DNA of 12,398 bases from a virus (IMGVR_UViG_2645727991_000004:1-12398), one strand, 5' to 3'. Counted from the stretch's first letter, positions 7,162 to 8,708 are shown. The notes: generated from the letters alone by a model not told the origin. Numbers and translations are program-made.

Positions 7162-7488
7162 TCATAACACCGTCGGACAACGCAAATCGTAAATCAGCAC
7201 GGACACAGAAAACGGCAGTTCCCCCTGCACGAGGTCTTCCCGCTCAGCAAGATCCGGATTCCGGTACAGCATCCCGGTCAGTCGCATGGCAGCCCCCTTC
7301 ATCCGGGTTAATGCCTCGCCCGGGATCAGCTCACCGTCCTCACTAATCACTTTATCCCGGCTGCCCTGAATGTAGGCCAGCAGCACGGCGGTAGCCTGAC
7401 GAACCTTGTCCATCAGCATGTCATCATCCGCGTCATGGTCAACACGCAGATGTGCCTTGATCTCTTCCAGTGTCAGTAATGCCGTCAT
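7162..7488 (-). CDS. Head-tail connector protein (gp6-like)
   Basis: 108-aa ORF with N-terminus TLEEIKAHLRVDHDADDDMLMDKVRQATAVLLAYIQG, typical of gp6-like connector proteins. Its start overlaps the stop of the upstream repeat-protein gene (ATGA). Confidence 0.65.
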   Translation of the reverse strand: MTALLTLEEIKAHLRVDHDADDDMLMDKVRQATAVLLAYIQGSRDKVISEDGELIPGEALTRMKGAAMRLTGMLYRNPDLAEREDLVQGELPFSVSVLIYDLRCPTVL

Positions 7489-8708
7489 TTTCCGCCTCCT
7501 GCATCCCGTCCACGTTTTGCAGCCAGGGTCCAGCCTGATGAATGAGCTTCTCCGGGTTTATCACCGGTCATACTGTTGCAGTGCCACAGCGAGCCCCCCC
7601 ACGTCACCGTATCGCCGGGGTGGTAGGTTTCACCGGCTCTGAACACACCGCGGTAGAGCATCACCGGCAGGGAAAATGTTTTTTCCGTACGCTGGCCACT
7701 GCTGTGCCGGATCACCACAGAGAACAACCGCTCCCCCGTCATACTGACGTCAATATCCGCCACCCCGTCAACCAGGCATTCCCATCCCCGCATCCCGTGC
7801 GTTTTTTCATACGCCCGCCAGAATCCTCCCAGGTGTGTGGCATACGTGCCCCGGGGAAAGGATTTTTGATCGTCAATAGCGGGGAGCACTTCCAGAGCCG
7901 TGGCATCACGCCCGTCCTGCGGAGCCGGCAGGGCATTCACCGCCTCCAGAACCGCCTTCCGCAGAACATCCGGATCGTAATCACGACCATCACGCGGAGC
8001 AGGGATATGGCTTACAGCCTCTTTCACCATCTGCTCAAGCATCGGACGCACATCATCGGGGGTGATACTTTTGCCGTCTGCCGGCACCGGTATTTTCGCG
8101 ACCGCATCATTCACCGCCTGCTTCAGTACTTCCGGATCGTAGTCACGACCATCACGCGGAACAGGAATATGGCTTACCGCCTCTTTCACCATCTGCTCAA
8201 GCATCGGACGCACATCATCGGGGGTGATACTTTTGCCGTCTGCCGGTACAGGAATGCTCCCGACAGCATCATTCACCACCTGCTTCAGTACTTCCGGATC
8301 GTAATCACGACCATCACGCGGAGCAGGGATATGGCTTACGGCCTCTTTCACCATCTGCTCAAGCATCGGACGCACATCATCGGGGGTGATACTTTTGCCG
8401 TCCGCCGGTACCGGAATATTCGCAACCGCATCATTCACCGCCTGCTGCAGTACATCCGGATCATAATCACGACCATCACGCGGTACCGGAATGGTCCCCA
8501 CAGCGTCATCCACCATCGCCTGCAGAACCGGATGTACCTCATCCACCGTCACATGCTTCTGTAATACCGCCGACAGGGAAGCCAGTTTCTCTTCAAACGT
8601 TTGTGCCTGCGCGGCCATCTTCTCCTCAAATGTGCGCTGTAAATCCGCCAGCACCGTGGCGAATTCTTCTCCCAGTGCACGAATAATGGACAGTTCCCGT
8701 TCCGTCAT
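7485..8708 (-). CDS. Head/neck-module protein of unknown function: helical N-terminus, tandem 54-aa repeats, C-terminal domain with a carbohydrate-binding (CBM5/12-like) motif
   Basis: 407-aa ORF translationally coupled to the portal (ATGA at 8705..8708) and to the connector gene (ATGA at 7485..7488). It contains about four tandem repeats of IP[VA]PRDGRDYDP[DE]VL.QAVNDAV..IPVPADGKSITPDDVRPMLEQMVKEAVSH. The C-terminus reads F.AGETYHPGDTVTWGGSLWHCNSMTGDKPGEAHSSGWTL, which resembles the aromatic/Gly pattern of CBM5/12 domains. That it is a real gene is well supported; its function is inferred. Confidence 0.8.
   Translation of the reverse strand: MTERELSIIRALGEEFATVLADLQRTFEEKMAAQAQTFEEKLASLSAVLQKHVTVDEVHPVLQAMVDDAVGTIPVPRDGRDYDPDVLQQAVNDAVANIPVPADGKSITPDDVRPMLEQMVKEAVSHIPAPRDGRDYDPEVLKQVVNDAVGSIPVPADGKSITPDDVRPMLEQMVKEAVSHIPVPRDGRDYDPEVLKQAVNDAVAKIPVPADGKSITPDDVRPMLEQMVKEAVSHIPAPRDGRDYDPDVLRKAVLEAVNALPAPQDGRDATALEVLPAIDDQKSFPRGTYATHLGGFWRAYEKTHGMRGWECLVDGVADIDVSMTGERLFSVVIRHSSGQRTEKTFSLPVMLYRGVFRAGETYHPGDTVTWGGSLWHCNSMTGDKPGEAHSSGWTLAAKRGRDAGGGK
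7866..8546 (-). repeat. In-frame tandem repeat array, 162-bp period (about 4 copies; each unit is two related ~81-bp half-units)
   Basis: The motif ccggatcgta[ag]tcacgaccatcacgcgg recurs at 7970, 8132 and 8294, with a 1-mismatch copy (ccggatcataatc...) at 8456. atcggacgcacatcatcgggggtgatacttttgccgtc recurs at about 8041, 8203 and 8365. Spacing is exactly 162 bp, matching the 54-aa protein repeats. Array edges are approximate. Confidence 0.8.

Follow-up and report, generated by a model that had tools for sequence, protein, structure and literature searches.

The window, by which we mean the whole stretch of 12,398 nucleotides that was analysed, holds a head-to-tail morphogenesis block from a lambdoid prophage of E. 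coli that belongs to the long-tailed Stx1/Stx2c type. On its minus strand a fusion of prohead protease and major capsid protein is followed by a 73-aa ORF, a portal gene, a 407-aa ORF at 7485-8708 that we here name X or gene X, a gp6-like adaptor and a head-closure protein, with the capsid gene coming before the portal gene; after these come gp10-like and gp17-like genes, a major tail protein that contains an Ig-like domain, and then chaperones and the tape measure protein (Table 1). Gene X is identical (100%) in E. coli MB06102 and shares 96-98% identity with its counterparts in many Stx-converting phages. The portal of the window matches the solved portals 9lbn and 8cez (HK97), while its capsid protein has no solved relative by sequence; the protease-capsid fusion contains a scaffold-like segment, where a coiled-coil signal lies at aa 189-210. 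An initial annotation of this DNA had placed the 407-aa gene between portal and head-tail connector genes and had described ATGA overlaps with both neighbours, and both statements are confirmed, the former by the matches of the flanking genes to PF04860 and Phage_connect_1 and the latter by the two junctions themselves. We found no promoter or terminator between portal, X and adaptor.

Table 1. Positions in the window of gene X, its subdivisions and its neighbours.
Feature	Position	Strand	Evidence or remark
Prohead-protease/major-capsid fusion, 645 aa	10281-12218	(-)	
HK97-family portal gene, 454 aa, upstream partner of X	8705-10069	(-)	PF04860 E=7e-81; TIGR01537 E=2e-106
G5 tract in last portal codons (AGG GGG ATA), also Shine-Dalgarno-like element for X	8720-8724	(-)	
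ATGA overlap, portal stop and X start (translational coupling)	8705-8708	(-)	AAATGA kept in relatives
Gene X, fibre-like protein, 407 aa, 44.4 kDa, acidic (pI 5.0)	7485-8708	(-)	ORF; PHROG 1289; PHROG 2271 positions 455-859
N-terminal amphipathic helix, aa 3-50, presumed attachment/oligomerisation element	8559-8702	(-)	AlphaFold2, pLDDT 80-85
Degenerate half-repeat, aa 52-72	8493-8555	(-)	VTVDEVHPVLQAMVDDAVGT resembles repeat-unit ITPDDVRPMLEQMVKEAVSH
Repeat unit 1, aa 73-126	8331-8492	(-)	
Repeat unit 2, aa 127-180	8169-8330	(-)	DNA identity to unit 1, 90%
Repeat unit 3, aa 181-234	8007-8168	(-)	DNA identity to units 1 and 2, 93%
Partial fourth unit, aa 235-262	7923-8006	(-)	First half-unit only
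C-terminal all-beta domain, aa 263-407, best conserved within the family	7488-7922	(-)	Model of aa 270-407
CBM5/12-like subdomain, aa 350-397	7518-7661	(-)	Pattern YxxGxFxxGxxYxxGDxVxWxGxxWxC...KPG...W
ATGA overlap, X stop and adaptor start	7485-7488	(-)	AGGAGG at 7495-7500
gp6-like head-tail adaptor (Ad1), downstream partner of X	7162-7488	(-)	PF05135 E=6e-8, PHROG 40; Phage_connect_1

The N-terminal helix of the X protein has a motif, M(N/D/T)ERELSxIxAxGEEF, that is conserved across enteric genera. An oligomerising helix had been proposed here, and the helix itself is predicted by AlphaFold2, but a regular coiled-coil heptad is unsupported (best register 0.53); because the heptad periodicity is weak, we describe the N-terminus as an amphipathic helix and not as a demonstrated coiled coil. 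The stalk that follows is encoded by a single array identified by Tandem Repeats Finder (7951-8483, period 162, 3.3 copies, 91% matches, score 891). Three full units of 54 aa span aa 73-234 with pairwise DNA identities of 90-93%, whereas the fourth is similar in its first half only and its DNA identity falls to 55% over the whole unit, so that the earlier description of about four near-identical repeats was slightly generous. Within a unit an IPxPxDG(K/R) linker occurs twice, and a helix of 13-17 residues comes after each linker. In the AlphaFold2 model the stalk is poorly defined (pLDDT 40-60), and matches of the helical repeats to TetR_C_35, DUF4244 and FliG_N in Pfam and to V-ATPase subunit E and others in NCBIfam were sub-threshold and were set aside. 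Among E. coli copies of X, the C-terminal domain has a pN/pS of 0.21 and the N-terminus one of 0.35, values that show purifying selection on the gene.

The C-terminal domain was modelled alone (aa 270-407) with 53 homologues, giving a pLDDT of 88.6. Among these homologues 24 columns are invariant, including W309, C311, W375 and C377, and within the CBM5/12-like subdomain Y352, Y362, W370, W375 and W393 are invariant or nearly so. The CBM5/12-like motif that the initial annotation had read in this region is real: Pfam CBM_5_12 (PF02839) matches aa 357-379 at E=0.0018, although its 18.7 bits do not reach the gathering score of 26.2. Six of ten more distant members that were scanned gave 21-25 bits for the same model, likewise under the cut-off, and precomputed PF02839 matches exist on X homologues from Klebsiella, Salmonella and Enterobacter. 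Another precomputed domain, PF28083, is also seen on homologues. The model contains the small antiparallel beta fold of about 45-60 aa expected of a CBM5/12 module. Of the checks suggested for this region, structure prediction thus gives a CBM5/12-type fold, and the profile search a score below that required for membership of the HMM family.

Further structural matches of the C-terminal domain are to the AlgoCIS baseplate protein, a Pseudomonas phage tail fibre and parts of tailspikes, and Foldseek agrees. Predicted viral structures gave 42 matches at E<=1e-3, with labels that in many cases read collagen repeat, CBM5/12, ChiC_BD, pectinesterase or tail fibre. PDB sequence searches with the X protein and with the profile returned nothing below E=0.028. 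We note that small folds resembling CBM5/12 also serve roles other than glycan binding; All3316, a protein of the AlgoCIS baseplate, and Acb4 of SPO1 are examples.

When 1.84 billion representative proteins were searched with a profile, 7,910 members of the family were identified at E<=1e-3 and 989 at E<=1e-30. Among the matches listed the conserved domain is C-terminal, and lengths range from about 210 to 1,237 aa. Of 5,426 complete E. coli genomes, 1,247 have gene X, whose carriers include Stx1- and Stx2c-converting phages, and its stand-alone form corresponds to PHROG 1289, which is labelled 'portal protein'. An exact-sequence look-up of X returned no cluster. Certain Klebsiella fragments bear the NCBI name 'gp6-like head-tail connector', which led us to consider a fusion of X to the downstream gp6-like adaptor; these fragments hold X sequence only, and we rejected such a fusion. 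We found no functional data on the X family in the literature dealing with the portals of Stx phages, with neck fibres or CBM decoration, or with phage 2851, FSL SP-016 and PDB 9LBN, nor did we find proteomic or cryo-EM data, a solved structure or an experimental paper devoted to it.

Close E. coli homologues of X are 245, 353, 407, 461, 515 or 569 aa long, that is, they differ by steps of one 54-aa repeat, and stalk length varies freely between near-identical phages. Counting units across homologues therefore bears out the suggestion that the stalk is recombinationally variable, and repeat number changes by unequal recombination of the 162-bp repeats. At the same position distant members carry 22-26-aa repeats of the form 'LPxPEPLPDI + helix', long coiled coils or collagen triple-helix repeats; the last of these occur in the X proteins of three of our loci, L102, L103 and L148 (Pfam Collagen E=2e-33), and since such stalks are triple helices they imply trimers.

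With a distant member as reference we examined 79 diverse viral contigs, in which the order TerL, protease-capsid, portal, X, Ad1, Hc1, gp10, gp17 and tail tube is kept and X usually overlaps the portal stop. Where genes inserted beside X have informative matches, they are collagen-like proteins matching tail-fibre PHROG families, and having non-collagen C-terminal regions, or, in one case, a sialyltransferase-like protein. Given these inserted neighbours, the interval around X behaves as a fibre cassette.

The junction between portal and X exists in two states, distinguished by a run of G residues 12 nt upstream of the ATGA. In the split form, AGGGGGAT, the run has five residues (G5), and in the fused form, AGGGGGGAT, it has six (G6), which joins portal and X in frame. 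Sampling 81 loci, we counted 52 G5 and 29 G6. For 752 complete E. coli records the junction that matches best is exact G6, and for 367 it is G5 with the same flanks, these counts being taken from bands of at least 99% identity and open to homopolymer errors in long reads. The G6 state occurs in the sequenced phage records 2851, YYZ-2008, WGPS6 and phi330. It is mostly limited to a single cluster of portal sequences (26 G6, 7 G5) together with a small one, while ten other clusters are purely G5. A second, independent fusion of portal and X, of 1,237 aa and with a different, Ser/Asp-rich linker, was found in a divergent lineage. X is truncated in 5 of the 29 G6 copies as against none of the 52 G5 copies (Fisher p=0.005; three independent events), an enrichment that would be expected if fusion compromises X; in the other 24 G6 copies X is intact, and its pN/pS equals that of G5 copies.

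It is this single-nucleotide difference that leads PGAP to call the split form, the window included, a 'frameshifted portal': on L001, a locus 100% identical to the window, positions 4640-7224 are annotated as 'phage portal protein, frameshifted'. The initial annotation missed this link, namely that the X ORF is the C-terminal half of what the pipelines call a 'frameshifted portal protein'. Taken at face value, the PGAP label would mean that X is no gene of its own, and that a longer portal gene has been broken by the loss of one G and is now a pseudogene. PHROG 2271, a fused portal-X profile of 859 positions, and the large number of G6 copies are in keeping with such a history. Nevertheless, we regard it as extremely improbable and reject it, for reasons both phylogenetic and functional. 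Ten distant enteric relatives (six genera, 37-58% identity) have the junction on their contig, and every one of them is split and keeps the AAATGA overlap; Salmonella phage FSL SP-016 is split, again with AAATGA, and so are Rhizobium phage RHph_X2_26 and the sequenced phage BP-4795. X gave no match to portal models, PF04860 and TIGR01537 being covered completely by the upstream ORF, within which they end, and HK97 and other solved portals have no extension of this kind. The near-restriction of G6 to one portal cluster also argues against a broken ancestral fusion.

Sakai prophage Sp10 has the split arrangement of the window, with ECs_1974 followed by the 407-aa ECs_1975 (X). Sp10 is one of three Sakai prophages scored as having kept all morphogenesis genes, and it has been transferred to K-12 (PMC2669165). 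It is the only one of those three with this head-gene organisation, and its transferability in the split state is difficult to reconcile with a pseudogene. Because the distant relatives, Sp10, BP-4795 and FSL SP-016 are all split, the split form is ancestral. We conclude that gene X is a separate functional gene, read from its own ATG overlapping the portal stop, that X is not a portal protein, and that the 'portal protein' labels of PHROG 1289, PHROG 2271 and NCBI come from fused alleles.

The two junction states also raise the question of whether one genotype might yield a regulated mixture of portal and portal-X, either by programmed -1 ribosomal frameshifting at A_GGG_GGA or by reversible G5/G6 slippage amounting to phase variation. 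The product of a -1 slip of tRNA-Gly on G5 would be identical to the G6 protein, and that of a +1 slip on G6 identical to the G5 portal; the rare codon AUA lies directly after the tract, the tract is within a Shine-Dalgarno-like run, and G5 and G6 are both found inside one sequence cluster. Against this, a G run or other slippery site is absent in all ten distant relatives, which have AGAGGA instead, and the two states are largely bound to lineages. A run of five or six G is short for high-rate slippage, and the tRNA-Ile(CAU) and tRNA-Arg(UCU) genes of Sp10 would relieve codon starvation. We therefore judge a regulated mixture to be quite improbable, and conserved programmed frameshifting in particular is rejected, as the slippery site is not conserved outside the E. 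coli clade.

Where the product of gene X is located, and what it does there, must be judged from its architecture and its relation to the portal. We hypothesize, at what we would call an even chance, that X is an accessory fibre present in few copies at the portal vertex, has a tip of the glycan-binding type and belongs to a specific HK97-like head module. Low copy number is supported by the coupling to the portal gene and by the lack of a promoter or terminator between portal, X and adaptor. An external appendage fits the fibre architecture, the collagen stalks, the free variation in length and the adjoining collagen-like fibre genes, as well as the structural kinship of the C-terminal domain with tail-fibre and CBM proteins and the enrichment of truncated X in G6 copies. 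The initial annotation had offered a head or neck fibre or a decoration protein. Head decoration is unlikely, X being translationally coupled to the 12-copy portal and not expressed like a capsid protein. The fibre part of that proposal is supported by the succession of helix, variable stalk and CBM-like tip, while the two independent in-frame portal fusions, together with the abundance of G6 and its mostly intact X, argue against a simply external fibre. We also stress that, across hosts from Rhizobium to E. coli, no part of the family is better conserved than the C-terminal domain, which is unusual for a receptor-binding tip.

In the accessory-fibre model, X would form trimers whose N-terminal helix may dock at the portal/adaptor ring after head assembly, as T4 fibritin does on the neck. 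The stalk would then project the tip outward, where it could reversibly bind a polysaccharide, be it a host surface glycan, matrix cellulose, PNAG, chitin or mucin glycans, and such binding might raise the chance of encountering a host. The G6 allele, with X fused to the portal C-terminus, would be a derived state that traps most X inside the capsid, and would be tolerated, X presumably being non-essential. The fused alleles can be reconciled with this model in that they retain the Shine-Dalgarno-like element and the internal ATG, which could still give rise to free X, and the internal, fused copy may be tolerated or trimmed by the prohead protease. Nested head genes have a precedent in lambda C/Nu3, and the loss of an accessory fibre has one in the stf frameshift of laboratory lambda.

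The portal fusions can also be read in another way. In solved portals the C-terminus faces the capsid interior; portal-X fusions consequently place X inside and suggest the portal crown as its natural partner. X would then be an internal protein whose helix binds the C-terminal tail of the portal, through a covalent link in G6 phages and without one in G5 phages, sitting like the P22 portal barrel or like SPP1 gp7 and Mu gpF, whose genes likewise follow their portal genes; it might be ejected with the DNA, its tip binding the glycan strands of periplasmic peptidoglycan. That the portal C-terminus has been joined to X in frame twice independently, that G6 is abundant and occurs in sequenced phage records, that X remains intact with unchanged pN/pS in most G6 copies, and that X lies directly after the portal gene and is translationally coupled to it are all consistent with an internal location. 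On the other side stand the collagen stalks, the freely varying stalk length, the adjoining collagen-like fibre genes and the tail-fibre/CBM kinship, and we know of no internal head protein with such features. X has no Phage_Mu_F match, truncated X is enriched in precisely those copies that are fused, and a trimeric beta tip of 16 kDa would probably pass the portal channel poorly. On balance we consider an internal location possible but rather unlikely. We give a comparably small chance to the more novel outcomes, either a crown-tethered internal or ejected head fibre with a variable, sometimes collagenous stalk and a tip gripping peptidoglycan, or a single-G indel acting as a heritable switch between displayed and sequestered X.

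The N-terminal two-thirds of X are helical, acidic and elongated, and the gene adjoins the portal gene in a head operon, properties that would also suit an assembly factor, scaffold-like or acting as a chaperone of portal incorporation, that is absent from the mature virion. We think this improbable. The protease-capsid fusion already has a scaffold-like segment, and collagen in place of the helical region would not preserve a scaffold function. A scaffolding protein would, moreover, be helical without a conserved globular ligand-binding domain, whereas the most conserved part of X is the CBM-like beta domain and not the helices.

Among known systems, T4 fibritin and other accessory fibres would be the closest analogues of X in mode of action, the tip of X being of CBM5/12 type. 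T4 fibritin (Wac), a trimer, is a non-essential accessory fibre whose copy number is roughly that of the portal. The two have in common a gene among neck genes, an N-terminal anchor, a segmented helical stalk with Gly/Pro loops and, at the C-terminus, a small conserved beta domain. They show no similarity in sequence or profile; the tip of X is CBM5/12-like where that of fibritin is the foldon, the stalk of X is built of 54-aa helix-linker pairs or of collagen, and X, for which attachment to the neck is putative, is coupled and sometimes fused to the portal gene, all unlike fibritin. Compared with the CBM5/12 modules of Serratia ChiB, S. griseus ChiC and Erwinia EGZ, which bind chitin and cellulose, X falls under the Pfam gathering threshold, its module lies inside a larger two-part beta domain of 120 aa with two invariant cysteines, it has no attached hydrolase and its ligand binding is putative.

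SPP1 gp7 and Mu gpF resemble X in that their genes are directly downstream of the portal gene, and the fusions suggest a physical link of X to the portal as well. X differs from them in lacking a Phage_Mu_F domain (PF04233; no Pfam match at E<=0.01) and in being fibre-like, gp7 and gpF being compact internal proteins. A likeness to the barrel of P22-type portals is seen in the G6 portals and in those of the P0250 type, the latter being our designation, whose long C-terminal extension is helical in part and has to point into the capsid; the fused X extension, however, is about 400-780 aa with repeats and a beta tip, while the P22 barrel is a 120-aa helix, and in most lineages X is a separate polypeptide. 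T4 Hoc, the lactococcal neck passage structure and the Ig-like domains of tail tubes are non-essential glycan-directed modules on structural parts, as we propose for X, from which they differ in fold, attachment partner and gene position.

Gene X thus appears, as judged from sequence, to encode a phage accessory fibre with a carbohydrate-binding-type module, having the architecture that the initial annotation saw and an unusual relationship to the portal. The family comprises several thousand sequence clusters, and yet its members are named 'portal protein' or flagged as pseudogenes; treating X as a conserved component in its own right, and a fibre-like one, removes a systematic error of annotation. 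Recognizing X as a real gene changes the scoring of 'defective' EHEC prophages, and the natural G5/G6 pair is a ready-made experiment on an accessory protein fused to the portal. Finally, phages that spread Shiga toxin genes may have in X a protein for adhesion or ejection.

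In the E. coli genome identical to the window (L001), the PGAP annotation merges the portal gene and X, the gene for the 407-aa fibre-like protein between the portal and adaptor genes, into a single 'frameshifted' portal pseudogene. X occurs in 1,247 complete E. coli genomes, and in many of them the same label likely reaches the split (G5) copies, in which the G-tract allele near the portal end leaves portal and X as separate genes. A natural portal-X fusion of independent origin is found in the representative protein library (P0250, 1,237 aa); its linker is rich in Ser and Asp, and it has some 20 short repeats of the form 'LPEPEPLPDI + helix'.

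Terminator-like hairpins flank the block that runs from the capsid gene to gp17, and a search of the coding strand between the portal, X and adaptor genes revealed no promoter-like or terminator-like site. The portal/X junction contains the rare codons AGG, GGG and AUA, and in many alleles also AGA, at which the window has CGA. In the related prophage Sakai Sp10 (L100), genes for tRNA-Ile(CAU) and tRNA-Arg(UCU) lie upstream of the late genes.

Upstream of the portal gene we observed a fusion of the prohead protease and the major capsid protein, the inverse of the HK97 order; a sequence search for a solved relative of the fusion found none. The portal start is overlapped by 55 nt by a small ORF of unknown function, which is kept in many related loci.

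A precomputed match to the Pfam family PF28083 falls inside X homologues. Two cysteines of the C-terminal domain are invariant among 53 homologues; they might be joined as a disulfide or bind a metal. In divergent relatives, X is adjoined, between portal and adaptor, by added genes for collagen-like fibres and by a sialyltransferase-like gene. By eye, the C-terminal parts of two of the inserted genes' products appear to resemble a lectin or a β-helix. The major tail protein ends in an Ig-like domain, which is a putative second surface-adhesion module in the same virion.

Coordinates of the features in the window and in related records
Feature	Record	Position	Strand	Remark
Terminator-like hairpin	window	12240-12257	-	
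Protease (S78)-capsid (HK97-type) fusion	window	10281-12218	-	645 aa
Small ORF	window	10015-10236	-	73 aa, PHROG 829
Portal	window	8705-10069		
X	window	7485-8708	-	
X Cys 311	window	about 7776-7778		
X Cys 377	window	about 7578-7580		
Terminator-like hairpin	window	5973-5987	-	
Major tail protein	window	5234-5950	-	Ig_2, E=1.4e-7
Portal pseudogene (PGAP)	L001	4640-7224		
tRNA-Ile, tRNA-Arg	L100	40705-40957		
Inserted beside X	L103	4581-6014		
Inserted beside X	L148	3559-4173; 4170-5459		
Inserted beside X	L102	7353-7973
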